Virus record (IMG/VR): IMGVR_UViG_3300028048_000001 | Span: 96,001 to 160,000 of that record | Direction: 5' to 3' (one strand) | DNA from: a virus | Lineage: Duplodnaviria > Caudoviricetes | DNA: 64,000 nucleotides | Shown: positions 2,539-26,615 of the stretch, piece after piece | Numbering within the stretch: the stretch's first letter is position 1 | Layout: the number at the start of each line of letters is the position of its first letter | Made by a program: the position numbers and the translations under genes | The notes under the pieces: model-generated | The model's database searches: none | Seen by the model: the letters and a program-made list of their open reading frames with translations, nothing else | What the model was told of the DNA's origin: nothing

Positions 2539-2578
2539 AAACAAGTAAGTGATTATTCACTTACTTGTTTTATTTTTT
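2539..2578 (+). terminator. Intrinsic terminator
   Basis: AAACAAGTAAGTGA-tta-TCACTTACTTGTTT hairpin followed by a T-tract. Confidence 0.8.
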
Positions 2579-2581
2579 AAT

Positions 2582-2600
2582 TAAATATTATAATACTGAA
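2582..2600 (+). promoter_or_regulatory. Putative early (virion RNAP) promoter, representative copy
   Basis: TAAATATTATAATACTGAA; near-identical motifs at 6761, 9237, 16087, 18544 (+) and 35040, 57003, 57612 (-). Confidence 0.6.
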
Positions 2601-2629
2601 TAAAAATAAAAGAAAGGATGTGATATAAT

Positions 2630-3319: not shown

Positions 3320-3320
3320 T

Positions 3321-3357
3321 AAAATGAAGAAGAGATTTGATCTCTTCTTCATTTTTT
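3321..3357 (+). terminator. Intrinsic terminator
   Basis: AAAATGAAGAAGAGA-tttga-TCTCTTCTTCATTTT. Confidence 0.8.
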
Positions 3358-3430
3358 ATTAAAATTTAAAATCATGTTTTTTTGTTTACTTACTTATTTA
3401 TAATATAATATTATTAAAGGAATTTTAATT

Positions 3431-4186
3431 ATGAGTATTTATTCATATGAAAATACTATTAATTCAATTTTAATTAATGAAAACTGTTATGATATTGATT
3501 ATTATATTACAGAATCTGGAACTAATATTGGTCAAATCTCTGGATTTAGCCAGCTTGCCACATTTATGATTGCTACTGCTAAAAAAGTTGGTGGTAAATT
3601 AACTGGAAAAAAGAATTATACGTCTAAAAGTATAGAATATCAAATTGAGAAACTTAAAAAATTAAGTAATAATATTGATGAAGAACTTGAAGATTTAAAA
3701 AATAATAATTATAAAATTAAACCAAGTTATGTAGCTAAAAACTTTTTTGGATGTTTTATTAGTTTAACAGTAGCAACTTCTATAGAATCTGCTATTTTGG
3801 TTGGATTTAATAAACAAAATGCAAAACTTATAGTTAGACAAAATCTGAATAATAAATATAATATAGCAAAAGAAGCCATTGATAAAGTTTCTAACGGTAA
3901 TACTAATTTTGCTTCTGCTGCAAAACAAGGATTAGATCATGCATATATTGATGCTTTTGACAACAGTATGAAATCAATAGATGCTAGATATAAAGCAGCT
4001 GGAATCACTGCTCAAAAAATAGCATTAGTAATATCTGCTATTATAGCAGCTGGTACCACTATTGCTATTCTTAAAGATTATAAAAAATCTTTAATTGATT
4101 GGAAAAAGAGTGTTGATGAAAATATTAAATTATTAGAAAAAGCACATAAAAAAGCTTTAGAAAAAGAATCTCAAAAATCAAAATAA
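3431..4186 (+). CDS. Hypothetical protein with hydrophobic segments (possible virion/ejection protein)
   Basis: ORF with AAGG RBS; two hydrophobic helices plus coiled-coil segments. Confidence 0.5.
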   Translation: MSIYSYENTINSILINENCYDIDYYITESGTNIGQISGFSQLATFMIATAKKVGGKLTGKKNYTSKSIEYQIEKLKKLSNNIDEELEDLKNNNYKIKPSYVAKNFFGCFISLTVATSIESAILVGFNKQNAKLIVRQNLNNKYNIAKEAIDKVSNGNTNFASAAKQGLDHAYIDAFDNSMKSIDARYKAAGITAQKIALVISAIIAAGTTIAILKDYKKSLIDWKKSVDENIKLLEKAHKKALEKESQKSK

Positions 4187-4206
4187 CTTATAATTTGAGG
4201 TAATAT

Positions 4207-5598
4207 ATGTCTATATTTAGTCCTACTAATTCATGTCAAATAGATTGTTCTAATAATAAATATTTTCAAGAATCTATTGTTGATGATGCTAAAACATATG
4301 TTGGTAATTTAAAGGATTTGTTTGATCAATATAAAAAAATTGCTAATACTTTTACTACACATAAATGGATACAAAGATATATTGATAAAAAAACATTAGA
4401 TCAGATAAAAAAACATTATGATACTATTTGTGATGATAAAGTAAATTATTCTACTTATAAGAGATCTTTCGAATTTATTAGAAAATTTATGGGAATATCA
4501 GGAAATGTTATTATAGAGAATATTGTATTTTCTAATGTTAAAGAAGATAAAGAACTTTTTAAAATTGCTATTAAATATTCCAAAGGATTAGCAAAAATAA
4601 AAATTCCAAAAGGTATAAGATTAGTTCATGTTTCTCCTGTTGGAGGTATTAATGAACTTATTCCTTCTTTTAAATCTAAAACCAAAGGTAAATATTTTTA
4701 CCCTTCTAAAAGATGTTTCTTTACTATTATGAAAGATATTAAAGTTAATCAAGCAGGTCTTGAAAATAAAAAACTTTATAGATATTGTACTGTAAACGAA
4801 TATACAGATGCTTATATAGATCCAACATATAATACATTTGGTGAAAGAGCTATTTATATAGAAACAGATTCACCAATTAAAGTTATGCCTTTTGAAAAGA
4901 AAATGCTTAATTTATTTAAAGAAAATAATATAGAAAATTTATATAATGGAAAATATTTTATAGAAAGAAAAAATATTAATGAATTTTTTTTAGATGATAG
5001 AGAGACAAAAGAAACTATTAAAAGACTTATCCCAAGAGAATCTGTTAGTCAGTCTAAAAACAGTTTTTCTAGTTCTTTAGATAATGAAGAATATAAAGAA
5101 ATAAAAGAAATATTTAATATATTACATAACACAGAAGACTATAAAGAATACAAAAAAGCATTCGAGAAATTGTGCAAATTCTGTCATATTGCTCCAAATG
5201 GAACGATCATTACTAAACATACTATCACTGGAAATGAAGATAGTGGGTATAAATTAGATGTAGAATATTCATATAATAATAAAAAAATCACTTTACCAGA
5301 TGAAGTTGCATTATATCATATGAGTAAAGTGGATCATATTACAGAATTAGAACCTAAATTTAGAGGAAAATCTGAAAGAGGCTATTTATATTATAAACCA
5401 AGAATATATTTTACAATAAAAAGAAATATGAGTAAGATAAGTGCTGATATTAATCCATTTAGTAATTCTAAAACTCATGTTTATATTTCTACTAAAAATA
5501 TTAAAGATGTTTATGTAGATCCATTATTAAATGCTTCTCTTAATGGAGCTGTATATGTTGAAACTTTTTCAAAAATACCAGTAAAGAAATTAAATTAA
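4207..5598 (+). CDS. Protein with two tandem homologous domains, possibly ADP-ribosyltransferase-like fold
   Basis: LVHVS..INELIPSFKSK..YPSKRCFFT..AYIDP..AIYIET repeated as LYHMS..ITELEPKFRGK..YKPRIYFT..VYVDP..AVYVET. Confidence 0.45.
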   Translation: MSIFSPTNSCQIDCSNNKYFQESIVDDAKTYVGNLKDLFDQYKKIANTFTTHKWIQRYIDKKTLDQIKKHYDTICDDKVNYSTYKRSFEFIRKFMGISGNVIIENIVFSNVKEDKELFKIAIKYSKGLAKIKIPKGIRLVHVSPVGGINELIPSFKSKTKGKYFYPSKRCFFTIMKDIKVNQAGLENKKLYRYCTVNEYTDAYIDPTYNTFGERAIYIETDSPIKVMPFEKKMLNLFKENNIENLYNGKYFIERKNINEFFLDDRETKETIKRLIPRESVSQSKNSFSSSLDNEEYKEIKEIFNILHNTEDYKEYKKAFEKLCKFCHIAPNGTIITKHTITGNEDSGYKLDVEYSYNNKKITLPDEVALYHMSKVDHITELEPKFRGKSERGYLYYKPRIYFTIKRNMSKISADINPFSNSKTHVYISTKNIKDVYVDPLLNASLNGAVYVETFSKIPVKKLN

Positions 5599-5678
5599 TA
5601 AAAAGAGAGGAACCTTTGTTCCTCTCTTTTTTCTTCAACATTTCTATAATTCGCAAAGAAAAGAAAGGATTGTATTAA

Positions 5679-6215
5679 ATGAATGATCTCATAAAATTAT
5701 TCACAGAATATTCTTTTGGATCTATTCTGGTTTTTATTTTTCTTATCCTTTCATCTGTAGCTGGAGTTTATAGTGTTTTTACTAAGATTACATCTTTATT
5801 AGAAGTCTATAGGGTAAGACGAAATTCTATTGAAGATAGAGATAAGAAAATAGATGATGCAATCAAACAAGTTGAAGCTATTATAGAAGTTCAAACAGAA
5901 CGGATAAAAAAAGATGAAGACAGAATAGAAGAACTAGAAAAAAACACTAAAACTATTAATGAAAATCTTAATAAATTTAACAAAGCAACATCTAGAAATG
6001 CAGTTTACAAACTTGCTAATGAACTTATTGCTAAACAATGGATGTCTCAATCTGATTATGAATCATTACAAGAATTGTCAGATGTATATATGAAATCTGG
6101 AGATTCTCATTATGTGATTCCTAATATTATTCAAAGAGCTTTAAATCTTCCTGTATTAACAGATGAAGAGATTGAAGCTAAAATGTCAAGACATAGAGCT
6201 GACTTTAAATTATGA
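5679..6215 (+). CDS. Membrane-anchored coiled-coil protein, holin-like/lysis-associated
   Basis: One N-terminal TM helix, a coiled coil, and a C-terminal motif resembling small lysis-region proteins of Firmicute phages. Confidence 0.45.
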   Translation: MNDLIKLFTEYSFGSILVFIFLILSSVAGVYSVFTKITSLLEVYRVRRNSIEDRDKKIDDAIKQVEAIIEVQTERIKKDEDRIEELEKNTKTINENLNKFNKATSRNAVYKLANELIAKQWMSQSDYESLQELSDVYMKSGDSHYVIPNIIQRALNLPVLTDEEIEAKMSRHRADFKL

Positions 6216-6283
6216 TTTACAAAAGGGAGAGATAAGAATCTCTCCCTTTTATTTTGTACTTATTAATAAAATATTTAAGGTAG

Positions 6284-6673
6284 GTGATTTTTATTAGAAT
6301 TTTACTTATTCAAGATGTTCATATTATGCCTACAAATATTAAACAAATATTATCTACCTTTGGAGAACTTATAGTTCTTAATGATGGTATGGAATCTTTA
6401 AATAAAATAACAAATTTTAGTATAAAAAATATTGATATAATATTTATAGATATTATACTTCCTAAATTGTCTGGATTAGATGTTATTAAAAAAATAAGAA
6501 CTTTTGAAAAGAATCAAAATTTGCATAGATCTTATATTGCATTAATGATTCCACCATATTTTTTTAATCTTAATAAAAACGAACTTTTATCTAATGGAAT
6601 TGATAAAATATTTGTTAAACCTATTAAACCTAATTCAATTAAAGATTATCTTAAAGAAATTAATCTAATATAA
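6284..6673 (+). CDS. Stand-alone response regulator receiver (REC) domain protein
   Basis: GTG start after AGGTAGG; DIIFIDIILPKLSGLDV (phosphoacceptor D), G.DKIFVKPI (conserved K-P); no output domain. Confidence 0.75.
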   Translation: MIFIRILLIQDVHIMPTNIKQILSTFGELIVLNDGMESLNKITNFSIKNIDIIFIDIILPKLSGLDVIKKIRTFEKNQNLHRSYIALMIPPYFFNLNKNELLSNGIDKIFVKPIKPNSIKDYLKEINLI

Positions 6674-6789
6674 TTTGTAATTAATATAAGAGAAGATTAA
6701 ATTCTTCCCTTATATTAATTTTTATATTGTATATAACGTAAAACTAAAAACTACTATTATTAGATATTATAATATTGAAAGGTGATAAA

Positions 6790-7491
6790 ATGAAATTAAC
6801 AGATATTTTTAACGATAATTCAGTTTGTATTTTTACAGATTCTAGTTTTAAGAATATGTCAAATGATAAAAATATTGCTGTAGGTATTACAGCACCATCT
6901 ATATGTATTTACATTGGTACAGATATTGTGTATCAAGATTTTTATATATTACATAATTCAACAACTCAACAAGGTGAGTTGTATGCTATATTAATGGGTG
7001 TGATGAAATCTTATTTATATAAAGATTATAAAAATATTAGATTATTTTCAGATTCTCAAGTATCTATATTTGGTATTAGAGATAGAATATTTAAATGGGT
7101 TAGATCTACTAAAGAAGGAAAAAATATTTTAGGAGAAAATGGTTCTATTAAAAACCAAGATTATATAATGGATATAGTATACTATATTTTATATAACAAT
7201 ATTCCTATAGAATTTTATCATGTAAAAGGACATGTAAAAAAATCTTATGATAGTATATTGAAAGCTAAAAATACATTTAAAAATTCAAATAATATTATAG
7301 AAGCTGTAGATGATGCATTAATATATATGATATCAAGTGCTAATAATTATGTAGATAATTATTCTACAGATATGCTTTATAGTAATTTAAATAATTTTAT
7401 TACAAATTTAAAACCAGGAGTTAGTATTGGATATACTGATTTTAATATTAATCAGTATTATAAACTTATTAAAGGAGATTATTGTGAATAA
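6790..7491 (+). CDS. rnhA: Ribonuclease HI
   Basis: FTDSS, QQGELYAI, FSDSQ, HVKGH, NNYVD catalytic motifs; ATG 6790 after GAAAGGTGA. Confidence 0.85.
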   Translation: MKLTDIFNDNSVCIFTDSSFKNMSNDKNIAVGITAPSICIYIGTDIVYQDFYILHNSTTQQGELYAILMGVMKSYLYKDYKNIRLFSDSQVSIFGIRDRIFKWVRSTKEGKNILGENGSIKNQDYIMDIVYYILYNNIPIEFYHVKGHVKKSYDSILKAKNTFKNSNNIIEAVDDALIYMISSANNYVDNYSTDMLYSNLNNFITNLKPGVSIGYTDFNINQYYKLIKGDYCE

Positions 7492-7927
7492 CAATTATAC
7501 GTTAAATTTGATAAACTATAATTTATTATATGAAATAAATCTTCCATCAAAAATAACAGACTATGATTATGATACAAATAACTCTTCAAGAAGATTTATC
7601 AGTACACTTTTACACAAATTATCTTTTTATGATAAAATTACTAATATTAAAATATTAGATTTAAATTTTTCTACAGAAACTTGTTATAATTTAAAGCATG
7701 GATTAATTAAATTAATAGATGATAATTCAAAATCTCCAAAACCATTTTTATTAACAATTCGGGATATATATCTAGATGAGATGTATATACCAAGTGTATT
7801 ATCAATGTTTAAATTGCCAAATAATTATATCCAAATTTCTATATTAAATAATATAAATCAAAAAATATTAATATTTAATAATTATGAAATAAAAGAATTA
7901 ATTAATTTATTAAATATTGAATTTTAA
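7484..7927 (+). CDS. Hypothetical protein
   Basis: GTG at 7484 after AAGGAG, overlapping the RNase H stop. Confidence 0.5.
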   Translation: MNNNYTLNLINYNLLYEINLPSKITDYDYDTNNSSRRFISTLLHKLSFYDKITNIKILDLNFSTETCYNLKHGLIKLIDDNSKSPKPFLLTIRDIYLDEMYIPSVLSMFKLPNNYIQISILNNINQKILIFNNYEIKELINLLNIEF

Positions 7928-7976
7928 ATTCACTTTGAAATAATAAGAATTTTAAATTTTAGAAAGGGAATTAAGT

Positions 7977-8258
7977 ATGGATATAAAAATTGTTGTAGAA
8001 TTTGCTGTTGCAGCTTTAATTGCTATAGGCATATTAGTTGGAATTCTTATTGGTATTCAAGCAGATATGAGCAGAACATTGTATATTATTTTAGACGAAA
8101 ATATTAATATTCGTAAAATTATGATGAAACAATATATTGCTACTAAAATTCTTTTTAAAAATAAATATGAAATTGATATTGATGAATATGAAGAATTATA
8201 TAATTCTTCTATAGATGCTAATTATAAGAATAAAATTTCTAACAATAATGAAATTTAA
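7977..8258 (+). CDS. Small membrane protein
   Basis: N-terminal TM helix; AAGGG RBS. Confidence 0.55.
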   Translation: MDIKIVVEFAVAALIAIGILVGILIGIQADMSRTLYIILDENINIRKIMMKQYIATKILFKNKYEIDIDEYEELYNSSIDANYKNKISNNNEI

Positions 8259-8288
8259 TTTCTTAAAATAATAAGGAGGAAAATAAAA

Positions 8289-9206
8289 ATGATTAATAAA
8301 ATTAAACCTATTCATGCACAAGATTGTAACTGTGAAAATTGTAAAAATAATATAGTAATGGTACCTATTGATGTTAATTCTCTTTCTGATTCTGATAGAG
8401 AGATAATAGATAATTACATGACTAAAAATAATAATAATATAGTTTCAAATACAAATATTGATATACCTAGACCAGCTATTAGATATGATGGTTTTAATGT
8501 TTATACAAATAATGGTATCGTAAATATTCCATCGAATGTTTACAATGTTTTTTCATCATTGGGTGTTAGTATTACAGATTTAATTTCTCATGATGTTAAT
8601 AGTGATACGTTTAATTTTGATATGAATACATTAGAACTTGTTGTATCTACAAATATGTGTATATGTATTGATAATTTTATTTTAACCTTAGATAATTTGT
8701 ATTCTGTTGCTATTGAGAATATTAATAATAAATTTAAAACATATTTTATTGATAAAATATTATCAGAAATGACAGCAGAAGAAGATTATTATAATATGGA
8801 TAGCAGTATAAAGAATTTCGAATTTCGTCCATACTACCATTTCATTAATAGAACAGATCTGTCTAAAGCTATTAGTACATATATTTCAATAGGGCCTAAG
8901 GCTAGAGAAAATATGTATGATAATATAATGTCTTTTTCTATCGCTTATATAAATAAATCTGGTTTATCGATTTATAATAATCTTAGAAACGAACTTACTT
9001 CATTTTGTGAAATTAAAGAAGTTACTAAAAATGGAAATGATATTGTAAAAGATATGTTTTCGTTTATAGAAAAAGAGTTTTCTAATATAATGATATCATT
9101 TACAAGTGAAGCTGCAATATTTTCTAATAATATTGTAGAAAATTTTGATATTTTATTTAATCCTGAAAAATATATTGCTAAATATTTACAAATTGAAAAT
9201 TCTTAA
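8289..9206 (+). CDS. Hypothetical protein with N-terminal HxxxCxCxxC metal-binding motif
   Basis: AGGAGG RBS; HAQDCNCENC. Confidence 0.6.
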   Translation: MINKIKPIHAQDCNCENCKNNIVMVPIDVNSLSDSDREIIDNYMTKNNNNIVSNTNIDIPRPAIRYDGFNVYTNNGIVNIPSNVYNVFSSLGVSITDLISHDVNSDTFNFDMNTLELVVSTNMCICIDNFILTLDNLYSVAIENINNKFKTYFIDKILSEMTAEEDYYNMDSSIKNFEFRPYYHFINRTDLSKAISTYISIGPKARENMYDNIMSFSIAYINKSGLSIYNNLRNELTSFCEIKEVTKNGNDIVKDMFSFIEKEFSNIMISFTSEAAIFSNNIVENFDILFNPEKYIAKYLQIENS

Positions 9207-9349
9207 TTTGAATGTAAAAGTAAATTCGTAATTAAATAAATATTATAATTATGAATTATATAGAATGGAGGTTAATATTTAAAATTTATATTCAAATTAA
9301 CTCTCTTCTAAAGAGAGAAATGAAGATTTTATAAAAGGAGAAAATAATA

Positions 9350-10996
9350 ATGTTTGCACCCAATTATATGAATATGCAGCCTATGAATGGCTATGGGTTT
9401 AATAATATAACTAATAATTATGGTGGATATCCATTTGGATATCCACCTCAAATTGTAAATTCTGGATACAATATGTATCAGCAAAGAAATCCATACAATA
9501 ATTATGGAATTCCAAATACTATGAATGGAACATATTATCCAACAATGCAAATGCAAGAACAACAAATGTTGTTGCAAAATGGTGGATATTATGATAATAA
9601 TACAAATCAATTTATAACAAATGACAAACCTTTAAAATCCGGTCCCGATAATCCCCTTGAACAATATAGATATATTCCTGGTCAAAACACTGGATATGTA
9701 GAATTAGAAAAATCTGATGGTTCTAAAGATAAAGTGTATATTCCTGGTGGAACAATTACAAGACCAGGAGGATATAATCCAGCCACTGGAATGATTACTC
9801 AACCAATGGTTAGATATCCTGGATTAGAAAATATGACAAATGTTCCAAATTATGGTATGTTTAATGGTTCACAATATCCTATTCACATGTTACCAAATGG
9901 ATTTGGACAGAATTATTTTGGTAATTGTGTACAAGGATATTCTATGAATGAATTTGATAATTTTCTTAAAGAAATATTATATAGTGATGAGCCATATAAA
10001 TATTCAGCATTTGATGGAATTGAGATGTTAGAGAATATAATTTTAACAGATGCTGAAAGGGAGAAAATTAATCATAATAATAATGTATCTATAATTGGAA
10101 CAGATTATTATGGAAATCCTATTTATAATAATTATTATTTAGCAAATCAACAAAAGCAAGAAATTATAGAAAAAATTAGAAATAATGAAATAGAACATTA
10201 TACACGAATTTCTAAAGCTGTTCATGCATATGATGGAAAAGAATTTGATGAAGAAAAAGCTAGAGAAAGATTTGATCCAATGAGAAGATATAATCAATAT
10301 CAGCAAACTATTAATCAGCAAATGAAACCATTTAATATGTATACAGCTACAGAAAAAGAAAAGAAAGAATATTTTGAAAATATAAGAATTATAAATACAA
10401 ATAATCTTGTAAATCAAATTGAAAATTTTGATAGACAAATGGAGCAATTTAATAGATTTAGAGATATGATGAGATGTAAAATCAAAGAATCTCATGATAT
10501 TGCTCTTGGTATAAAACCAGGAGAACATTATAACCTTTCTACATTTTTAACGAATGCATATAAAATTGGAATTAATAATAAAATGCAAGAACTTAAATCG
10601 TTAAAAAGAAATGGTAAATTAAAATATAATTCTAATGATTATAAAAATGCTATATCTAGAAAGGTTAATAGAAATAATTTTATTAATAATACTCCAGATA
10701 TTGTAAGTACAAAAGATACAGAAGAATTAACTATAGAAAGTGCTTTAAGATCTGCTTATGACCATAATAGATCAGGAATGCCTATTCCTTTACCAGATCA
10801 TGGGCAATCATTAATGATCAGTTTTGGTGATGATAATTCAAAAAATAATGGAATTATGTATGAAGCTGGTAAAACTCAATTAAATGTATCAGCATATAAT
10901 GATAATCAGCTTGCTAGTAGATTAGAAGAAGTAAAACAAGAATTTTTAAAAAGAATGAATGAAAATAAAGTTAAAGCGATGGGGTATGCACAATGA
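9350..10996 (+). CDS. Protein with N/Q/Y/G/M/P-rich low-complexity N-terminus
   Basis: AAGGAG RBS; first ~90 aa nearly devoid of charged residues. Confidence 0.65.
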   Translation: MFAPNYMNMQPMNGYGFNNITNNYGGYPFGYPPQIVNSGYNMYQQRNPYNNYGIPNTMNGTYYPTMQMQEQQMLLQNGGYYDNNTNQFITNDKPLKSGPDNPLEQYRYIPGQNTGYVELEKSDGSKDKVYIPGGTITRPGGYNPATGMITQPMVRYPGLENMTNVPNYGMFNGSQYPIHMLPNGFGQNYFGNCVQGYSMNEFDNFLKEILYSDEPYKYSAFDGIEMLENIILTDAEREKINHNNNVSIIGTDYYGNPIYNNYYLANQQKQEIIEKIRNNEIEHYTRISKAVHAYDGKEFDEEKARERFDPMRRYNQYQQTINQQMKPFNMYTATEKEKKEYFENIRIINTNNLVNQIENFDRQMEQFNRFRDMMRCKIKESHDIALGIKPGEHYNLSTFLTNAYKIGINNKMQELKSLKRNGKLKYNSNDYKNAISRKVNRNNFINNTPDIVSTKDTEELTIESALRSAYDHNRSGMPIPLPDHGQSLMISFGDDNSKNNGIMYEAGKTQLNVSAYNDNQLASRLEEVKQEFLKRMNENKVKAMGYAQ

Positions 10997-15227: not shown

Positions 15228-16040
15228 ATGACTTCTAGTCTATGGAGAAATATAAATTATAAGACACCGATAAAATATTATATAAATACTTATATTAGAG
15301 AATATGATTTATCTAAAGCAAATATAAATGCTTTGTTATATCAAAAAAGAATATCTAAATCTGAATATGATAATTTCTATTCTATGGATAAAAAAGAAAG
15401 AGAAGTTATTATAGGAAAAATGATATCTAAAGATAGAACAATATATCAAGATATTCAATCTGGTATAAAAGAAGCAAAAAGAAAATTATTTTTAACAAAT
15501 AATATAGAAGATATAGATATTGTATCTATTAAAAATGATGCAGTATTTATAGTAGGAAAATATTTACAAAATACAGAATTTCCACCTTTTAATTTTGTAA
15601 TAAAAAATGAATATAATATATTTTTACAATTACAGGAATTAGAAATATATTATTCTGATTCTATAGATAATAGCGGATATAATATAAATATAGATGTAAA
15701 AGGGATTGGAGATAATAATTTATTATTACATCAAAATGGAATGTTAGATTTAATTTGTGAAGTTTGCAGAAAATTACAAAGAGAACCTGTAGAAGAAACA
15801 ATGAATTATGTTTCTGTTATGTATAATAAATTTATAAATAGAGAATTAAATAAAGAATATTATAGAAATTTTGATTCATTCTCTATGTATATAATTCCTA
15901 CTTTTATGCAGTTTATACAAGTTCCAGATATATCTGAAGATATGAAATATGCTGTAGATATAAATAGAAATTTAAGTATAATGAGAAATTTAGTAGGTAT
16001 AATATCAGATATTTATAGACAAAAAAGGAGAAGAGGATAA
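15228..16040 (+). CDS. Possible small palm-domain polymerase-like protein
   Basis: REYDLSKAN (motif A-like), SIKNDAVF (motif C-like), DVKGIG. Confidence 0.4.
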   Translation: MTSSLWRNINYKTPIKYYINTYIREYDLSKANINALLYQKRISKSEYDNFYSMDKKEREVIIGKMISKDRTIYQDIQSGIKEAKRKLFLTNNIEDIDIVSIKNDAVFIVGKYLQNTEFPPFNFVIKNEYNIFLQLQELEIYYSDSIDNSGYNINIDVKGIGDNNLLLHQNGMLDLICEVCRKLQREPVEETMNYVSVMYNKFINRELNKEYYRNFDSFSMYIIPTFMQFIQVPDISEDMKYAVDINRNLSIMRNLVGIISDIYRQKRRRG

Positions 16041-16142
16041 TCCTCTTCTCTTTTTAATTTTATTTTTAAAAAATAATATTCTTGAATAAATATTATAATA
16101 ATGAAATAAAGGATAATATTTATTATTTTAAGGAGGATAAAT

Positions 16143-17279
16143 ATGAATAATTTAAATCTTGATGTTGATATTAAAAGTTTTGATATTTCTCAAATTTCAC
16201 AAATTTATGTTGGAATTTCAAAAAAAATAGATGTATCTATATATGCTGATCCTAAGTTTGATAGTGATCAAATGCATCAAATTCGTCTTGGTTTAGAAGA
16301 TAAATTAGATATATCTATTTATGCTGATCCTAAGTTTAGATGTGATCAAATGCATCAAATTCGTCTTGGCTTGAAAAATGGATTAAATGTTTCTATTTAT
16401 GCTGATCCTAAATTTGATGCTTATCAAATGAGTCAAATTTATATTGGTTTGAAAGATAGATTAGATGCATCTATATATGCTGATTCTGAATTTAAATACT
16501 TTCAAATGGATGAAATCCGTCTTGGTTTAAAAGATGGATTGGACGTTTCTATTTATGCTGATCCTAAATTTGACTGTTCTCAAATGCATCAAATATATCT
16601 TGGTTTAAAAGATGAATTGAATGTATCTATTTATGCTGATCCTAAATTTGACTTCTTTCAAATGAATGAAATCCGTCTTGGTTTAAAAGATGGATTAGAC
16701 GTTTCTATTTATGCTGATCCTAAATTTGACTGTTCTCAAATGCATCAAATATATCTTGGTTTAAAAGATGAATTGAATGTATCTATTTATGCTGATCCTA
16801 AATTTGACTTCTTTCAAATGAATGAAATCCGTCTTGGTTTAAAAGATGGATTAGATATATCTACCTATGCTGATCCTAAGTTTGATTGGGAACAGATGGA
16901 TGAAATTCGTATTGGATTAGAGGATAGATTAGATGCATCTATTTATGCTGATCCTAAATTTAATAATTATCAAATGAGTCAAATTCGTCTTGGTTTAAAA
17001 CATGGATTAGATGTATCTATTTATGCTGATCCTAAATTTAGTGACGATCAAATGAATGAAATCCGTCTTGGTTTAAAAGATGGATTAGATATATCTACCT
17101 ATGCTGATCCTAAGTTTGATTGGGAACAGATGGATGAAATTCGTCTTGGTTTGAAAGATGGATTAGATGTATCTATTTATGCTGATCCTGAATTTAGCAG
17201 TCTTAAAATGAATCAAATCCGTCTTGATTTGAAAGAAGGATTGTATATATCTATATATACTGATCCTAAATTTAATTAA
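16143..17279 (+). CDS. 26-aa helical repeat protein, copy 1 (13 repeats + cap)
   Basis: GLKDGLDVSIYADPKFxxxQMxxIRL repeats; AAGGAGG RBS; early motif at 16087. Confidence 0.85.
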   Translation: MNNLNLDVDIKSFDISQISQIYVGISKKIDVSIYADPKFDSDQMHQIRLGLEDKLDISIYADPKFRCDQMHQIRLGLKNGLNVSIYADPKFDAYQMSQIYIGLKDRLDASIYADSEFKYFQMDEIRLGLKDGLDVSIYADPKFDCSQMHQIYLGLKDELNVSIYADPKFDFFQMNEIRLGLKDGLDVSIYADPKFDCSQMHQIYLGLKDELNVSIYADPKFDFFQMNEIRLGLKDGLDISTYADPKFDWEQMDEIRIGLEDRLDASIYADPKFNNYQMSQIRLGLKHGLDVSIYADPKFSDDQMNEIRLGLKDGLDISTYADPKFDWEQMDEIRLGLKDGLDVSIYADPEFSSLKMNQIRLDLKEGLYISIYTDPKFN

Positions 17280-17420
17280 AAAATAAAGATATTTAAATTA
17301 AAATTATAGATAAAGAAAATAGGGATTAATCCCTATTTTCTTTTTTATTTTTTAATTAATAATTATAATAATAGAATAGAAGATAGATAATAATTTTATT
17401 TACAATTTTATAAAATGGAG
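17270..17420 (+). repeat. Duplicated intergenic cassette (terminator + promoter + RBS); second copy at ~18459..18600
   Basis: TAGATAAAGAAAATAGGGATTAATCCCTATTTTCTTTTTTATTTTT present in both spacers. Confidence 0.9.
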
Positions 17421-17426
17421 GAAAAT

Positions 17427-18458
17427 ATGAATAATTTAAATCTTAATATTGGACTTTTTAGTTTGAGTCAGATAGAAGTGATTTATCGTGGTCTTGAAGA
17501 AGGATTAGATGTATCTATATATGCTGATCCTAAGTTTGATAATGATCAGATGGAAATAATTCGTTATGGACTTAAAGATGGATTAGATGTATCTATATAT
17601 GCTGATCCTAAATTTAACTGGGAACAGATGGATGAAATCCGTCTTGGTTTAAAAGATGGATTAGATACATCTATTTATACAAATCCTAAGTTTGATTGGG
17701 ATCAGATGGAAACAATTTATCGTGGACTTAAAGATGGATTAGATGTATCGATCTATGCTGATCCTAAATTTGACTGCTCTCAAATGTATCAAATTCGTCT
17801 TGGATTAGAAGATAAATTAGATGTATCTATTTATGCTGATCCTAAGTTTGATAGTTATCAAATGAGTCAAATTCGTTTTGGTTTGAAAGATAAATTAGAT
17901 GTATCTATCTATGCTGATCCTGAATTTAAATACTTTCAAATGGATGAAATTCGTCTTGGTTTAAAAGATGGATTAGATGTATCTATTTATGCTGATCCTA
18001 AATTTAGTGGTATTAAAATGTATCAAATCCGTCTTGGGTTAGAAGATGGATTAGACGTATCTATTTATGCTGATCCCAAGTTTGATTGGGAACAGATGGA
18101 TGAAATTCATCTTGGTTTGAAAGATGGGGTAGATGTATCTATCTATGCTGATCCTGAATTTAATTGGGAACAGATGGATGAAATCCGTCTTGGATTAGAG
18201 GATGGATTAGATGTATCTGTTTATGCTAATCCTAAGTTTAATAATGATCAAATGGAAATAATTCGTTATGGTCTTAAAGATAGATTGGACGTATCTATAT
18301 ATATTGATACTAAGTTTAATTATAGTCAGATGAGAGAAATTTATCGTGGCCTTAGAGATGGATTAGACGTATCTATTTATGCTAATCCTAAGTTTGATAG
18401 TAATCAAATGGAAATAATTCGTTATGGTCTTGAAAGTAGATATTTATGGTGTTTCTAA
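17427..18458 (+). CDS. 26-aa helical repeat protein, copy 2 (12 repeats + cap)
   Basis: Same repeat; ATG 17427 after GGAGG. Confidence 0.85.
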   Translation: MNNLNLNIGLFSLSQIEVIYRGLEEGLDVSIYADPKFDNDQMEIIRYGLKDGLDVSIYADPKFNWEQMDEIRLGLKDGLDTSIYTNPKFDWDQMETIYRGLKDGLDVSIYADPKFDCSQMYQIRLGLEDKLDVSIYADPKFDSYQMSQIRFGLKDKLDVSIYADPEFKYFQMDEIRLGLKDGLDVSIYADPKFSGIKMYQIRLGLEDGLDVSIYADPKFDWEQMDEIHLGLKDGVDVSIYADPEFNWEQMDEIRLGLEDGLDVSVYANPKFNNDQMEIIRYGLKDRLDVSIYIDTKFNYSQMREIYRGLRDGLDVSIYANPKFDSNQMEIIRYGLESRYLWCF

Positions 18459-18602
18459 GTTTAATTGAAAAACAAATACATTTAAATTGAAATGTAGATA
18501 AAGAAAATAGGGATTAATCCCTATTTTCTTTTTTATTTTTAATTATATATTATAATATTGAAATAAAAGATAAATAATAATTTTATAAAATGGAGGAAAA
18601 AT

Positions 18603-19316
18603 ATGAATGATTTAAATCTTAATATTGGACTTTTTAGTTTGAGTCAGATAGAAGTAATTTATCGTGGTCTTGAAGAAGGATTAGATGTATCTATATACGC
18701 TAATCCTAAGTTTGATGTTTTTCAAATGGGAGCAATTTATCGTGGACTTAAAGATGGATTAGATGTATCGATCTATGCTGATCCTAAATTTGACTGCTCT
18801 CAAATGTATCAAATTCGTCTTGGATTAGAAGATAAATTAGATGTATCGATCTATGCTGATCCTAAGTTTGATAGTTATCAAATGAGTCAAATTCGTTATG
18901 GTCTTAAAGATGGATTAGATGTATCTATATACGCTGATCCTAAGTTTGATAGTGATCAAATGGAAATAATTCGTTATGGTCTTAAAGATAAATTGGATGT
19001 ATCTATCTATGCCGATCCTAAGTTTGATTGGGAACAGATGGATGAAATTCGTCTTGGATTAAAGGATGGATTGGATACATCTATTTATACTGATCCTAAG
19101 TTTGATTGGGATCAGATGGAAATAATTCGTTATGGTCTTAAAGATGAATTAGATGTATCTGCTTATGCTAATCCCAAATTTAACTGGGAACAGATGGATG
19201 AAATCCGTCTTGGTCTAAAAGATGGATTAGATGTATCTGTTTATGCTAATCCTAAGTTTGATAATGATCAGATGAAAATAATTCGCTATGGCATTAAAGG
19301 TAAATATTTACGGTGA
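18603..19316 (+). CDS. 26-aa helical repeat protein, copy 3 (8 repeats + cap)
   Basis: Same repeat; leader nearly identical to copy 2; early motif at 18544. Confidence 0.85.
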   Translation: MNDLNLNIGLFSLSQIEVIYRGLEEGLDVSIYANPKFDVFQMGAIYRGLKDGLDVSIYADPKFDCSQMYQIRLGLEDKLDVSIYADPKFDSYQMSQIRYGLKDGLDVSIYADPKFDSDQMEIIRYGLKDKLDVSIYADPKFDWEQMDEIRLGLKDGLDTSIYTDPKFDWDQMEIIRYGLKDELDVSAYANPKFNWEQMDEIRLGLKDGLDVSVYANPKFDNDQMKIIRYGIKGKYLR

Positions 19317-19472
19317 TTCTAAGTTTGATAGTGATCAAATGAATATAATCCGTAGTAGTTTTGATAGATGATTAAATGCATATGTGTATCTTAAGTTTGA
19401 TTAATTGAAAAACAAATACATTTAAATTCTATTTTTAATTAGATAATTTAAAATTAAAGGAGGATATAAATT

Positions 19473-20285
19473 ATGAATAATATGTATAATGGATATACTT
19501 TTAATTCTATTAAAATGAACGAAATTCGTTTTGGCTTAAAAGATGGATTAGACGTATCTATATATGCTGATCCTAAGTTTGATTGGGAGCAGATGCGTGA
19601 AATTCGTATTGGCCTTAGAGATAGATTAGATGTATCTATTTATGCTGATCCTAAATTTAATTGGAAACAGATGCGTGAAATTCGTATTGGCCTTAGAGAT
19701 AGATTAGATGTATCTATTTATGCTGATCCTAAATTTAGTGGTATTAAAATGTATCAAATTCGTCTTGGTTTGAAAGATGGATTAGATGTATTTATTTATG
19801 CTAATCCTAAGTTTGATTGGGAACAGATGGATGAAATCCGTCTTGGTTTGAAAGATGGATTGGACGTTTCTATCTATGCTTATCCTGAATTTAATGATTA
19901 TCAAATGGGTCAAATTCGTCTTGATTTAAAAGATGGATTAGATGTATCTATTTATGCTAATCCTAAGTTTGACTTCTTTCAAATACGTGAAATTCGTCTT
20001 GGTTTGAAAGAAGGATTAGACGTATCTATCTATGCCAATCCTGAATTTAGTATTTATCAAATGTATCAAATCCGTCTTGGATTAGAGGATGGATTGGATG
20101 TATCTGTTTATGCTGATCCTAAATTTAATGATTGTCAAATGCATCAAATCCGTCTTGGTTTAAAAGATGGATTGGATGTATCTATCTATGCTGATCCTAA
20201 GTTTAGCAGTGATAAAATGCATCAAATTCGTCTTGGCTTAAAAGATGGAGTGGATGTATCTATTTATAAGGAGGATAAATTATGA
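19473..20285 (+). CDS. 26-aa helical repeat protein, copy 4 (9 repeats + cap)
   Basis: Same repeat; AAGGAGG RBS; MNNMYNGY leader. Confidence 0.85.
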   Translation: MNNMYNGYTFNSIKMNEIRFGLKDGLDVSIYADPKFDWEQMREIRIGLRDRLDVSIYADPKFNWKQMREIRIGLRDRLDVSIYADPKFSGIKMYQIRLGLKDGLDVFIYANPKFDWEQMDEIRLGLKDGLDVSIYAYPEFNDYQMGQIRLDLKDGLDVSIYANPKFDFFQIREIRLGLKEGLDVSIYANPEFSIYQMYQIRLGLEDGLDVSVYADPKFNDCQMHQIRLGLKDGLDVSIYADPKFSSDKMHQIRLGLKDGVDVSIYKEDKL

Positions 20286-20842
20286 ATAATATGTATAATG
20301 GATATGCTTTTAATTCTGATGAAATGGATGAAATTCATATTGGGTTAGAAAAAGGATTAGACGTATCTATATATGCTAATCCTGAATTTAATGATTATCA
20401 AATGCATCAAATTCGTCTTGGGTTAGAGGATAGATTGGATGTATCTGTTTATGCTGATCCTAAGTTTGACTTCTTTCAAATGGATGAAATTCGTCTTGGT
20501 TTAAAAGATGGATTAGACGTATCTATTTATGCTAATCCTAAATTTAACGATTATCAGATGTATGAAATCCGTCTTGGTTTGAAAGATAAATTGGATATAT
20601 CTATCTATGCTGATCCTAAATTTAGTGATTATCAAATGGATGAAATTCGTATTGGTTTAAAAGATGGATTAGATGCATCTATTTATGCTGATCCTAAATT
20701 TAACTGGTCTCAAATGCGTCAAATTCGTTTTGGCTTAAAAGATGGATTAGACGTATCTATTTATGCTGATCCTAAGTTTAGATGTGATAAAATGTATCAA
20801 ATTCGTCTTAGTTTAAAAGATGGATTAGATGTATCTATCTAA
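20282..20842 (+). CDS. 26-aa helical repeat protein, copy 5 (6 repeats + cap)
   Basis: Same repeat; MNNMYNGY leader; ATGA overlap with copy 4. Confidence 0.85.
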   Translation: MNNMYNGYAFNSDEMDEIHIGLEKGLDVSIYANPEFNDYQMHQIRLGLEDRLDVSVYADPKFDFFQMDEIRLGLKDGLDVSIYANPKFNDYQMYEIRLGLKDKLDISIYADPKFSDYQMDEIRIGLKDGLDASIYADPKFNWSQMRQIRFGLKDGLDVSIYADPKFRCDKMYQIRLSLKDGLDVSI

Positions 20843-20922: not shown

Positions 20923-20960
20923 AAAAAGCTGTGAGAATTAATTCTCACAGCTTTTATTTT
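20923..20960. terminator. Bidirectional terminator between convergent genes
   Basis: AAAAGCTGTGAGAATT-AATTCTCACAGCTTTT. Confidence 0.8.
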
Positions 20961-22397: not shown

Positions 22398-23120
22398 ATG
22401 CCAAAATATAGATCAAAAAATTTTACAGATGCTGATATTAATAATATTATTAATTTATATGAATTAGGATATTCTATTCAGCAAATTAGAGATATTACAA
22501 AAATTGCTAAAGATGTAATAAAAAAATATCTTGTTATTAAATTTGATAATGAAATTCCTATAACTCTTGATGAAAAATCATATTTTAGAAAAACTTATAA
22601 AGCTGGAAAATCTATTACAGAGATTTCTCATATAACAGGAAGAAATTGTTCTGTTATTAGAAGATATATTAAAGATCTTATAACTGATAAAGAAAAAGAA
22701 GAAAAATGCAAAGAAAATGAATCAATATTAAAAAAGAAAGCAAATAAAAATTCTGAAGATATTATTAATATATATTTAAATTCTTCATATGAAATATCAG
22801 ATATCGCTAAATATTATAATACGTCTAATGATTCAATTAGAAAAGTTATTAAATCTTGGGTCGATAAATATACTACATATGATAAAATATTTGAAAAACC
22901 GATTAATATTATAAAAGAAAAAATATTTAAAGATTTTTATTGTAATATAGGAGATAAATATGAAGTAATAGTACATACTTTTGAAGACGGAAACAAATTA
23001 TCTGTTGCTACAATAAAAGAATTATATCCAAAAATTGTTATGACAGATAAAGGAAGTTTTTCTTATAGAGATATAATATTAAATTCTAAATTAATATCTA
23101 GAAATATTAAAAATAATTGA
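22398..23120 (+). CDS. Multi-HTH DNA-binding protein
   Basis: Three HTH-like segments: GYSIQQIRDITKIAKDVIKKYL, GKSITEISHITGRNCSVIRRYI, YEISDIAKYYNTSNDSIRKVI. Confidence 0.6.
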   Translation: MPKYRSKNFTDADINNIINLYELGYSIQQIRDITKIAKDVIKKYLVIKFDNEIPITLDEKSYFRKTYKAGKSITEISHITGRNCSVIRRYIKDLITDKEKEEKCKENESILKKKANKNSEDIINIYLNSSYEISDIAKYYNTSNDSIRKVIKSWVDKYTTYDKIFEKPINIIKEKIFKDFYCNIGDKYEVIVHTFEDGNKLSVATIKELYPKIVMTDKGSFSYRDIILNSKLISRNIKNN

Positions 23121-23153
23121 CATCTATGTAATACCCTATTAATGGAGGAATAA

Positions 23154-26100
23154 ATGGAAAAAGTAACTTTATCCAGTAAAGTATTTACTGAAAATCCATT
23201 ACTAGATGAAATAATATACAATATTAGACAATTAGCTATTGGAACAATATTAAAAGATCAAGATAAAGCTGATAATAATGAAACATTAGAATCTATTAAA
23301 GCTGGAGATGTTCTTATTAGTCTTAATAGAGGTCATTATAATTTTAATTTCTTTTATTATGATGAAACTTTATTAAGACAGATATCTGGATTAACAGAAG
23401 AAGAAATTATAGAATATTCTGCTGATAATAGTAAAATTCCTGAAAGTATAAGAAAACCGTTATTTAATATGGCATCAGAAACATTTTTAAATAATTATGT
23501 TGAATATAATAATTATTATAGAATGCTTCATGGTGAACCGGATTATGATGAAACTGGTGTATGGCAAGGACTTTGGATAGACGATAATTATATAGATGAA
23601 GAAATTCCAACATCATTAGATCATATATCTATTGCTTATAAAGAGGAATACGATAATAATGGTAATCTTATATCAAATTATAAATTAATTCATGAATTAT
23701 CTTTAGCTAAACAGATTATTCTTGATTCTAATGGTACATTGGATAATATAATAGAAAATGAAACATGGCTAACAGCTAATAATTTAGAAAGAGATAATGT
23801 ATTATATCTCTTTCATATGGGTGATAAACAAATAGAATATTATGATGCAAGAACAGCAGAAAAATTTGCTATGTTATATTGCCCATCTTGTGATTCTGAA
23901 GAAGTAAGAATAAGATATAAAGATTTATTAGAAGCTAATAGATTGTATTTATTATATACAGTATATTCTACAGCTTATAAATATAGATCTGATTATTATG
24001 ATAATTTTATGATGGTGTTTTTAATCATACAAACGATTATAGATATGATCGTAGAATTACCAGAATATTTAATAAGAAGAGATATATTTGATACAAGAAC
24101 AGCTAGATATATTTTTGAATCAAATGGTGTTAAATATTTTAAGGATATACCATTAAGATATCAAATAGCTCTTGTAAAAAATCTTAATAAATTGATTAAA
24201 TTTAAATCTACAGATAAATGTATTGTTGATATAATATCATTGTTTGGATTTAGAAATATTAATGCTTTTAAATATTATATTTTGAAAGATAGAAATGTAA
24301 ATAATCCAGACAATTTGGATTATTATGATAATACAAAAATTGTAACAGATGAAGAAGGAAATAGAGATATTGTTCCTGATAATGATACAAACTATGATGT
24401 TAAATTTATTAAAGTTCCATTATTAGATCCGATATATGATAATTATGCAAAAAAAGATCAAAATATATTAGAATATGATGAAATAACATTACCAGATGCA
24501 TATTGGACTGGAGACAAGCAATATGAAACAGTAAAATCTGGAGTTAAAGATCTTGATTTTACTGTACTTAGGTCTAAATATTATACAATAGAGGCTGTTA
24601 TAGATTTAGCAGAAAGAAATTTTTCTCTTGTATATTTTATGAATATTCTGATGTATAATAAAATAGATAAATCTTCTCTTAGAATAAATTTACCTAATAT
24701 TTCTACTACCAAAAAAGTAGAATTAGTAAATGCTATTTTAGCATTATATTCTCTTGGGTATATTTATTATGGGATAGAAGATACTATAATGGATAGTAGA
24801 TCTAAAATAGCAGAAATATTAGGATTTAATATGGAAGCAGATTTTGCAGCTATTGCTCAATATTTGCATGATAATCATAGAGGATTAACTTTAGAAGAAT
24901 TGTGTTATGGACATGATGCTGTAGAAAGACCAGGATTTACAGTACCTAGTGATGATAAAATTTATAGTTTTGAAGAGCTTAGAGCTATTTTCTTAAATAA
25001 TAGAGATATATATAAACATGTAATAGAAGTAATGCAAAATCCACCTAGCAAAGAAATATACAATGCTTATAGATATTTATATAAGACATTATTCATCATG
25101 GATATGAATCTTGAATATTTCCTTGTAGGGGATAATGATATTGTAGATGAATACAAATCTAATGGATATACAACCAGATTTATCAATATTCCAAAACCAG
25201 AAAATTATCAAAATCCAGATGTTTATGAATATGATATGAAATGTCTTACAAGTACTTGTAATGAAAATACTCTTTATTTTGAAATGAGTGATAATTTTAA
25301 TGATACTCATGAATTTAATCTGTATACTTATAATCCAGAAAATGAAGAGTTTATCTCATTAAATGCTACTGCTAAAATGGCTAGCACATATACAGAATAT
25401 ATGAGATATAATGATGGTAATGTATATAAATTTCTTGTACAAGTTGCTTCTATAGATGATGAAGAAAAAAGGCAAGAAACTTGTGTCAATGCTATTCAAC
25501 AGATTATTGGATATATTAAAGATTATGTAGATGAAGATAAAACTGAAGTTTATATGGATGATGTATTTTCTGGTTTACCATCTGTTTCGTTAGAATTTGT
25601 TAAATCTTATATAGAAGAGGTAATAGATTTCTTCAAATCCTTTAAGATATTTACTCATGAATCTTCTATTATGTATGTAATAGATGATAAGTTTGATCAA
25701 TATGTTCAATTAATAGATCATATTTTACTTAAATATTTATTTGATAAAGCTGAAATTATTAAAATTGAAGATTTTATTTCAAATTCTAAAGTAAATATTA
25801 CAGAAAAAGAACGAGCCGATCTTATAGATAAAGTATGGTTTAGTATGGATTGGTGGATAAGAAAAAATTATTCTGAATATTATGAGAATAATAGAAATGC
25901 TTTAGAGGAAAATACAAGGCATGAATTTGTATATTATTGTCCTCAGTGTGGAACTAAATTAAATTCTAATGATACAGTATGTCCTCAATGTGGGACAGAA
26001 AATAAAGTTCCTATTATATTTGATAATTATGCTTCATTTAATAAAGCAATAAGAGAGTGGATAGATAGAAGGACAACTTTTGAATTATATGATGAAATGT

Positions 26101-26615
26101 TTAATCCAGAAAATCATTATATCAAAGAACTTGAAATTTATGCAGTAGATGCTATTTTACATATGCTAGTAGATATGTATGAGTATAATCAGATTAATAT
26201 TAACGATACTATAGGAAAAATGAGTGTTACAAAATATCTTACTGAATATATTAATGAATGGATAACAGATATTGCATATGTATTTCTTAAATTAGAACTT
26301 CATGATGGAGAAATACATTGCTCTAAATATTTCTGTCCTCATTGTGGAAAAGAGATAGAATATAATACTATAACTTGTCCATATTGTGGAAAAACAATAT
26401 TAGAACCAGATTCTAAGTATCACTATATAAGTCATATTAAAGATACGTTAAGCAAATCTGCTAGACTTAATTTAAATTATGCAATTAATTTTAGAGAAAG
26501 TATTAATAATTTCAATCAAACTATGAGTTTATATGAACAACCATATAGACTTTTTGATAATTATTATGCAATTATAACTCAAGAATTTCCACCACATGAA
26601 TTTATAGATGCTTAA
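23154..26615 (+). CDS. Large virion structural protein, probable baseplate wedge, with two double zinc ribbons
   Basis: 1153 aa; late-type motif at 23119; LIKFKST..IVDIISLFGF resembles wedge proteins; CPQCG..CPQCG and CPHCG..CPYCG. Confidence 0.55.
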   Translation: MEKVTLSSKVFTENPLLDEIIYNIRQLAIGTILKDQDKADNNETLESIKAGDVLISLNRGHYNFNFFYYDETLLRQISGLTEEEIIEYSADNSKIPESIRKPLFNMASETFLNNYVEYNNYYRMLHGEPDYDETGVWQGLWIDDNYIDEEIPTSLDHISIAYKEEYDNNGNLISNYKLIHELSLAKQIILDSNGTLDNIIENETWLTANNLERDNVLYLFHMGDKQIEYYDARTAEKFAMLYCPSCDSEEVRIRYKDLLEANRLYLLYTVYSTAYKYRSDYYDNFMMVFLIIQTIIDMIVELPEYLIRRDIFDTRTARYIFESNGVKYFKDIPLRYQIALVKNLNKLIKFKSTDKCIVDIISLFGFRNINAFKYYILKDRNVNNPDNLDYYDNTKIVTDEEGNRDIVPDNDTNYDVKFIKVPLLDPIYDNYAKKDQNILEYDEITLPDAYWTGDKQYETVKSGVKDLDFTVLRSKYYTIEAVIDLAERNFSLVYFMNILMYNKIDKSSLRINLPNISTTKKVELVNAILALYSLGYIYYGIEDTIMDSRSKIAEILGFNMEADFAAIAQYLHDNHRGLTLEELCYGHDAVERPGFTVPSDDKIYSFEELRAIFLNNRDIYKHVIEVMQNPPSKEIYNAYRYLYKTLFIMDMNLEYFLVGDNDIVDEYKSNGYTTRFINIPKPENYQNPDVYEYDMKCLTSTCNENTLYFEMSDNFNDTHEFNLYTYNPENEEFISLNATAKMASTYTEYMRYNDGNVYKFLVQVASIDDEEKRQETCVNAIQQIIGYIKDYVDEDKTEVYMDDVFSGLPSVSLEFVKSYIEEVIDFFKSFKIFTHESSIMYVIDDKFDQYVQLIDHILLKYLFDKAEIIKIEDFISNSKVNITEKERADLIDKVWFSMDWWIRKNYSEYYENNRNALEENTRHEFVYYCPQCGTKLNSNDTVCPQCGTENKVPIIFDNYASFNKAIREWIDRRTTFELYDEMFNPENHYIKELEIYAVDAILHMLVDMYEYNQININDTIGKMSVTKYLTEYINEWITDIAYVFLKLELHDGEIHCSKYFCPHCGKEIEYNTITCPYCGKTILEPDSKYHYISHIKDTLSKSARLNLNYAINFRESINNFNQTMSLYEQPYRLFDNYYAIITQEFPPHEFIDA

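Follow-up and report, generated by a model that had tools for sequence, protein, structure and literature searches.

Many tandem-repeat proteins combine a fixed scaffold with a variable specificity surface, as do the ankyrin/DARPin, TPR, and HEAT proteins. TALE proteins are built from two-helix units of 33 to 35 residues with a variable pair in the loop and a basic DNA-binding surface, and leucine-rich repeat variant (LRV) proteins from units of ≈24 residues, each comprising one α-helix and one 3-10 helix, that stack into a superhelix. The PARCEL/DUF285/TIGR02167 repeat is a 26-residue tandem repeat that spreads on mobile elements and is found in surface lipoproteins (PMC2996958). Here, we analyze five neighboring genes built solely of a 26-residue helical repeat that belongs to a different sequence family. 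They occupy positions 16143 to 20842, on the + strand, of a 64,000-nucleotide stretch of DNA (hereafter the window), which corresponds to bases 96001 to 160000 of the 274,241-bp IMG/VR virus record IMGVR_UViG_3300028048_000001.

The closest described relatives of the array genes fall into two groups. The repeats in polyvalent proteins of conjugative elements and phages are true homologs of the array repeat (E values of 1e-60 to 1e-230) and have the same 26-residue period, and DUF342/FapA proteins of Lachnospiraceae (PF20250 and PF03961) contain homologous 26-residue units with the same predicted fold (template modeling (TM) score, 0.74). The array differs from both. Polyvalent proteins are defined by several unrelated effector domains in one polypeptide, which the homologs have and the window proteins do not; the array genes encode nothing but repeats, and their jumbo phage has no ArdC or RadC gene. 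The DUF342/FapA proteins are chromosomal and single-copy, with ≈8 more degenerate units that carry a conserved face and are fused to a β-helical DUF342 domain. The repeat is not described in the account of polyvalent proteins by Iyer et al. 2017 (PMC5512222). An initial annotation of the window, made without database searches, had proposed that the five genes encode a diversifying repertoire of solenoid binders. Having compared the array with its homologs, we tentatively interpret it as a set of fast-evolving, acidic α-solenoid binders or decoys that mobile elements may deploy against host proteins.

Results

The initial annotation counted 13, 12, 8, 9, and 6 repeats plus caps in the five tandem genes, and this count holds exactly. 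The VSIYA anchors, of which there are 14, 12, 8, 10, and 6 in genes 1 to 5, are spaced precisely 26 residues apart, so that the array comprises 48 full units plus partial caps with zero indels. Numbered from the Q of QM, the unit reads QM-xx-I-R-x-GLKDGLDVSIYADPKF-xxx. I4, Y17, and F22 are invariant across units, and G7, L8, and S15 almost so; per-position entropy is highest at positions 24, 25, and 2 (2.8–3.1 bits), followed by positions 6, 23, and 3 (1.8–1.9 bits). Variation had been assigned to the three residues after KF and the two after QM, and the entropies agree with this assignment, except that position 23, the first residue after KF, is D, N, or S in 92% of units. These are the usual N-cap residues of helices, and position 23 is therefore better regarded as structural than as a free specificity position. 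There are 34 different faces among 43 helices. At the nucleotide level, a 78-bp period runs across the genes at 75 to 90% identity, gene 1 contains identical units, and genes 2 and 3 have blocks in common. Beyond the array, the repeat does not recur in the 274-kb genome.

As the initial annotation had stated, profile searches and hydropathy analysis revealed no catalytic domain, signal peptide, or transmembrane helix in the array proteins (maximum Kyte–Doolittle value over 19 residues, 0.77). Searches of Pfam, PHROGs, NCBIfam, and PADLOC found no second domain beside the repeat in any of the five. The Pfam candidates Poly_export, Asp_DH_C, ORF6C, and Organ_specific were rejected as sums of many weak repeat matches, including the single Pfam stretch that passed by itself (Poly_export in gene 5, covering 25 of 77 profile positions). 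PHROGs, NCBIfam, and PADLOC likewise gave only weak summed matches, none of them usable. Every PHROG family weakly matched by the array proteins is of unknown function, and in the comparison with known defense and anti-defense families (PADLOC and PHROGs), no listed PHROG match had a stretch that passed by itself. An assignment to PARCEL/DUF285 (PF03382, TIGR02167) was also rejected, with no Pfam match at E values up to 1 and no NCBIfam match at E values up to 0.01.

We modeled the fold with AlphaFold2, using the gene 3 protein and 56 aligned sequences. The prediction is a very confident one (predicted local distance difference test, 96.7; predicted TM score, 0.90) and shows a solenoid of one helix and one 3-10 turn per unit, in line with the fixed-scaffold solenoid proposed from the repeat pattern. 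In the model, positions 24 to 9 of each unit form a 12-residue helix; after a short loop, the three residues VSI make a 3-10 turn, and a 7-residue loop completes the unit. Models of other family clusters in the ESM Atlas, most of them viral or from Bacillota, have the same shape (TM scores of 0.85–0.97), and one DUF342 cluster shares the predicted fold at a TM score of 0.74. In a helical-wheel projection, M1, I4, and L8, which are buried, lie at 240 to 300°, and the variable positions 24, 2, 6, 25, and 3 lie at 0 to 140°, opposite the core. Taken together with the screw symmetry of the solenoid, this placement means that the variable residues would trace one continuous exposed stripe, as had been expected of a surface that determines specificity.

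Comparisons with experimental structures returned little. Foldseek found no match in the Protein Data Bank (PDB) below an E value of 0.001, with TALE and DARPin structures reaching a TM score of only ≈0.26. In a wide VIA structure search, a designed repeat scored best (Z of 8.5), with BurrH at 7.1 and the LRV protein 1LRV at 6.9, but all of these scores lie below the noise level stated for helical repeats, and the BurrH and LRV superpositions have root mean square deviations (rmsd) of ≈12 Å (for 1LRV, 11.9 Å over 198 residues). The array proteins also have no Pfam LRV match at E values up to 1. Ankyrin/DARPin, TPR, and HEAT proteins gave weak structural matches; they differ from the array in unit length and helix count and gave no Pfam match. 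A PDB sequence search with one protein and a profile search found no relative, and BFVD yielded only two uncharacterized proteins, both from one uncultured siphovirus.

By sequence, the family is large. Exhaustive HMMER searches recovered 2918 clusters (50% identity) at E ≤1e-3 and 1473 at E ≤1e-10, and the homologs include >690 proteins of near length and >1180 that are longer. Members are joined by significant sequence similarity, a shared predicted solenoid fold, and the 26-residue period, which is kept throughout (a spacing of 26 at 812 of the unit gaps in 240 homologs). The family signature, QMxxIRxGL-xxG-xDVSxYAxPxF, carries no database name. Pfam and NCBIfam contain no curated model for the repeat, it has no PDB sequence match, and literature searches turned up no description of it; the family seems to have gone undescribed until now.

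The initial annotation had also suggested that similar repeats may occur in mobile-element proteins of Firmicutes, where profile hidden Markov model (HMM) searches indeed find the family to be common. A first group of longer homologs comprises polyvalent proteins in which the repeats accompany ArdC-N/metallopeptidase (MPTase), RadC, LPD1, primase/Toprim, YodL, or DUF3846/DUF3849 domains. The second group comprises the DUF342/FapA proteins of Lachnospiraceae and Butyrivibrio, with ≈8 units at the N terminus. The surroundings of one DUF342 copy (GenBank MT836110) are plainly chromosomal, with neighboring genes that read from the sequence as trpB, trpA, a trigger factor-like gene, and spoIVA. Although labeled "Bacteriophage sp.," this entry looks like a fragment of a bacterial chromosome, and we excluded it as phage evidence; it also contains an HD-domain protein, and its DUF342 repeat protein is split over two frames at ≈6229 to 6278.

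Repeat-only genes were counted at other loci by running the unit HMM on fetched sequences. The multigene, repeat-only repertoire had been put forward as the novelty of this locus, a claim that does not survive, as arrays of three to seven genes of this kind are also present in other phages and in conjugative elements. Six IMG/VR phage contigs carry arrays of 3, 3, 3, 4, 6, and 5 repeat genes. Seven tandem repeat-family genes lie on a Negativicoccus succinicivorans contig (JAWEYO010000001.1; L002:6683–14343), upstream of a topoisomerase IA gene and with ParA nearby; the contig looks like a plasmid or conjugative element. Its array is interleaved with a DUF4116-type repeat gene, such that two unrelated repeat families are clustered there. 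We rejected DUF4116 as the identity of our repeat, since the two differ on inspection and the window proteins have no DUF4116 match. A stand-alone copy in Finegoldia has a RadC gene on one side and a gene for ArdC-N plus MPTase on the other, with SSB genes flanking the group, and further copies lie near TraC/TraG-type conjugation genes or near an AcrVA2-like gene. A repeat-family gene also occurs on the 470,695-bp European Nucleotide Archive contig k141_253207, which may be a megaphage. In the 21 kb of it that we read, almost no genes have a Pfam annotation and nearly all genes lie on one strand; Thg1-like, NUDIX, and IS605 OrfB/TnpB genes are among them.

To place the variation seen in the array, we computed entropies over 1557 units from 238 homologs. 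The positions that vary in the array also vary across the family, and other repeat arrays have the same top variable positions. Positions 10, 16, and 21 are different: they reach 3.1 to 3.4 bits family-wide and only 0.6 to 0.9 bits in the array, where positions 16 and 21 are nearly fixed yet show synonymous change. With these positions fixed while the face varies, the array focuses its variation on the face of the helix.

We then compared how this face behaves in chromosomal and phage copies. The chromosomal set comprised 30 DUF342 orthologs, whose DUF342 domains are 41% identical. Their face identity is 0.52 when the units compared are orthologous and 0.20 when they are not; the scaffold values are 70 and 52%, respectively. 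In a closer group of five DUF342 proteins, the face is conserved as much as the scaffold (0.90 versus 0.88). Each DUF342 unit thus keeps its own face, which identifies the face as a functional surface. The phage comparison comes from two IMG/VR contigs of sample 3300021256, L003 (positions 1–9757) and L004 (positions 1–9422), that are syntenic with the phage studied here. The proteins flanking the locus are 92% (upstream gene), 78%, 82%, 57 to 59%, 76.5%, and 84 to 85% identical to those in the window. The number of repeat genes at the syntenic position is one in L003, at least three in L004, and five in the window, meaning that the locus expands and contracts between close relatives; L003 has two unrelated genes (190 and 263 aa) after its single repeat gene, where the window has more repeat genes. 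Only zero or one of 20 to 26 face triplets is common to this phage and L003 or L004, and in the best register, face identity is 0.17 to 0.39 with scaffold identity of 0.72 to 0.81. These comparisons show a functional surface that is held constant in the chromosomal protein and quickly re-patterned in phages, and the fast turnover of the face together with the changing gene number agrees with the idea of a diversifying repertoire. The contrast points to a possible specificity surface engaged in an arms race.

Selection on the face was estimated with maximum-likelihood codon models on a tree of 46 distinct array units, in which 20 scaffold codons were compared with six face codons. The ratio of nonsynonymous to synonymous substitution rates (ω) is 0.16 for the scaffold, 1.40 for the face, and 0.32 overall, and a crude pairwise ratio of nonsynonymous to synonymous differences (pN/pS) gives 1.58 for the face and 0.27 for the scaffold. 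Synonymous sites have diverged within the array (pS of 0.39), and a scaffold ω of 0.16 in spite of this divergence indicates that the genes are maintained. The initial annotation had looked to an excess of nonsynonymous change; the face ω is not significantly greater than 1, as fixing it at 1 costs only ≈0.47 log-likelihood units (2ΔlnL ≈0.9).

A face ω near 1 is what might be seen if the proteins were rigid rods or spacers, serving as a scaffold or packaged internal protein of the virion or of an intracellular phage structure with a face under little constraint. Other observations can be read in the same way: the repeats sit between enzymatic domains of polyvalent proteins in the manner of linkers, a gene for a virion structural protein lies ≈2.3 kb downstream of the array, and designed, rod-like helical repeats head the structural matches. 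We nevertheless consider the rod explanation unlikely. It does not account for the unit-by-unit conservation of the face in DUF342 orthologs, for the fixation here of positions that are variable elsewhere in the family while the face varies, or for the retention of five differently patterned copies under a scaffold ω of 0.16. The composition of the face tells in the same direction. Position 24 is aromatic in 42 to 45% of units, Trp (TGG) being the commonest residue, and aromatics remain frequent on the face in a genome with a guanine–cytosine (GC) content of ≈25%; an acidic and aromatic face in such a genome is probably not the leftover that drift would be expected to leave.

The array proteins are strongly acidic, with isoelectric points of 4.3 to 5.0 and a net charge of −0.8 to −2.3 per unit. 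Across the family, the mean charge is −1.41 per unit, to which the face contributes −0.97, and the mean charge per unit is negative in 91% of the proteins. Strong surface acidity is a property of the DNA mimics ArdA and Ocr, and an acidic solenoid could imitate the charge of nucleic acid, as do those proteins and pentapeptide-repeat proteins, and so block DNA-binding defense enzymes such as restriction enzymes and nucleases. This would be a special case of the decoy idea, with a generic rather than a paralog-specific target, and it would suit those relatives that are fused to or adjoin ArdC, RadC, and SSB, as well as the one family context with a faint T7 Gp5.9-like neighbor. A DNA mimic, however, needs a conserved pattern of charge, not a hypervariable face bearing Trp, Phe, Tyr, and Cys, and mimicry does not readily explain the chromosomal DUF342 fusions. 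On balance, it strikes us as a distinctly doubtful account of the array. The acidic, aromatic ridge suits the binding of basic partners.

The acidity also bears on a reading in which, as in TALE, BurrH, PUF, and PPR proteins, the variable residues of each unit recognize a single base. Near-identical tandem units with few hypervariable positions are a true likeness to TALE and BurrH, and these proteins are among the weak structural matches (Foldseek E values of 0.1–0.4; VIA Z of 6.7–7.1). The superpositions are poor, however (rmsd of 12.8–14.1 Å; TM score of ≈0.26), and fall under the noise level for helical repeats. The array unit is also built differently, as 26 residues with one 12-residue helix and a 3-residue 3-10 turn rather than 33 to 36 residues with two helices, and its variable residues lie on the helix. 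The initial annotation had held that an acidic scaffold speaks against DNA reading, and the charges computed over the array and the family uphold this argument, since the proteins are acidic throughout and carry most of their negative charge on the face. Moreover, 34 distinct faces go far beyond what a four-letter code would need. We therefore regard a nucleic acid reader as very improbable. That the frames are a nonfunctional by-product of a selfish or slippage-prone 78-bp repeat, as its nucleotide identity and the cassettes duplicated with identical terminators might suggest, is scarcely credible, given five open frames in exact register, a scaffold ω of 0.16 with diverged synonymous sites, a locus conserved in related phages, and a protein family of ≈2900 clusters with one confidently predicted fold.

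Discussion

We favor, tentatively, the interpretation of the array as a repertoire of acidic solenoid binders or decoys. In this model, the units would stack via a fixed hydrophobic core of M1, I4, L8, L12, V14, I16, Y17, and F22 and would expose a continuous stripe in which acidic and aromatic residues abound, made up of positions 24, 25, 2, 3, and 6 of each helix. The stripe would bind other proteins, most likely basic ones such as nucleic acid-binding proteins. By keeping several differently patterned copies, the phage may hold a repertoire of binders or decoys against its host, used in establishment or in anti-defense. The repertoire would change by duplication, loss, and recombination both of units and of whole promoter–gene–terminator cassettes, with the fast replacement of face residues adding further change. 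Our analyses show the repeat anatomy, the predicted fold, selective constraint on the scaffold, a face conserved in chromosomal orthologs but turned over in phage relatives, and the link with mobile elements; we infer that the stripe binds proteins, which kind of protein it would target, when the genes act, and that they act against the host. On the comparative evidence, which backs it in part, the binder interpretation is plausible.

An anti-host role fits the company kept by the relatives, which includes ArdC and leading-region islands. ArdC is an anti-restriction protein (PMC7213743), and leading-region islands are enriched in anti-defense genes (PMC11541004). Several points count against our interpretation. 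The same repeat heads chromosomal DUF342/FapA proteins, and so the module is not in itself an anti-host device. This phage has no ArdC or RadC gene, and the genes neighboring the array are uninformative as to its role. The predicted exposure of the face derives from helix periodicity and conservation rather than from measured accessibility. Finally, as the face ω is not significantly above 1, a loosening of constraint on the phage copies is another possible cause of face turnover.

A more specific form of the binder hypothesis would be a modular recognition code, in which an extended ligand is contacted element by element, one per unit face (the ligand might be the tail of a host DNA-binding protein or an unfolded basic peptide read at successive residues), and phages and plasmids re-program specificity by shuffling units between paralogs. 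We consider a code of this kind improbable. Were it true, the family would apply TALE/PUF logic to the reading of peptides, in a natural and acidic form, and its compact 26-residue unit would offer a new scaffold for designed binders.

The binder interpretation would matter in several ways. The family recurs in gene sets that Firmicute phages and conjugative elements appear to deploy on entry, and the conservation of one scaffold in a chromosomal protein alongside its re-patterning in sister phages amounts to a natural experiment. If the targets are host defense or DNA-handling proteins, the family would constitute a new class of anti-defense decoys. The regular 26-residue unit may also serve as a scaffold for binder design. 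If the proteins are mere rods, the finding shrinks to a new type of solenoid.

Organization and genomic setting of the array

The features of the array are listed in Table 1. Genes 1, 2, and 3 each lie in a cassette of their own, with a terminator-like hairpin, a promoter-like word, and a GGAGG site. Gene 4 has its own GGAGG site, and there is no terminator between genes 3 and 4. The 32-nt hairpins that follow genes 1 and 2 are identical in sequence, which shows that duplication of the genes took along the entire cassette, with its terminator, promoter word, and ribosome-binding site. For gene 2, the ATG at 17427 is probably the start, because the ATG at 17415 overlaps the GGAGG site and translation from 17427 gives MNNLNL, as in the paralogs. 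The window's array contains no antisense frame of ≥50 aa.

Table 1. Predicted features of the repeat-gene array and its borders, in window coordinates
Feature	Position	Strand	Remarks
Terminator-like hairpin	16023–16055	+	Ends the upstream gene, just 5′ of the first cassette; 15-pair stem, then T run
Promoter-like word TATTATAATAATGAAATA, exact	16091–16108	+	Before gene 1; followed by AAGGAGG ribosome-binding site
Repeat gene 1	16143–17279	+	378 aa: N-cap, 13 full units, partial C-terminal unit
Terminator-like hairpin	17312–17343	+	After gene 1; from terminator scan
Promoter-like word, 3 mismatches (weak)	17361–17378	+	Before gene 2
Repeat gene 2	17415–18458	+	347 aa as listed, 12 units
Terminator-like hairpin	18500–18531	+	After gene 2; duplicate of 17312–17343
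Promoter-like word, 1 mismatch	18548–18565	+	Before gene 3
Repeat gene 3	18603–19316	+	237 aa, 8 units; protein used for folding
Repeat gene 4	19473–20285	+	270 aa: 9 full units and one partial
Repeat gene 5	20282–20842	+	186 aa, 6 units; start overlaps gene 4 stop (ATGA)
Bidirectional terminator-like hairpin	20924–20955	.	Closes the array and convergent minus-strand genes

The initial annotation had placed genes 1 and 3, and more weakly gene 2, behind a promoter motif, and the mismatch counts of the word before them (0, 1, and 3, respectively) reproduce this ranking. With up to three mismatches, the word has 23 matches in the window against 4.2 expected. From this recurring promoter-like word, we infer that the array may be expressed early. 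A scan of the window for two-hexamer sigma-70 promoters gave no promoter support, with fewer sites than in shuffled sequence (15 versus 47), and RNA runs from bovine gut contained at most 0.25 of the sampled words of the stretch and gave no evidence of expression.

Direct terminal repeats and a CheckV completeness of 100% together identify the record as a complete jumbo phage. When 18 kb of the window was compared with GenBank phages by megablast, nothing matched. The stretch is present in bovine gut metagenomes of about ten or more studies, placing its origin in the cattle gut, and the GGAGG ribosome-binding sites and Firmicute homologs suggest a Firmicute host.

On the minus strand of the syntenic contigs, opposite the repeat genes (L003:542–1294 and L004:151–2497), lie antisense frames of 66 to 170 aa with ISINRYIYS repeats, which are probably a by-product of repeat composition. 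Downstream of the array in the window, at 22398 to 26615, a gene for a 240-aa protein with a resolvase-type helix-turn-helix is followed by one for a 1153-aa protein with zinc ribbons close to the C terminus and a match to phrog_20751, a family of virion structural proteins. Both are kept in the syntenic relatives, at 57 to 59% identity for the helix-turn-helix protein and 76.5% for the 1153-aa protein.

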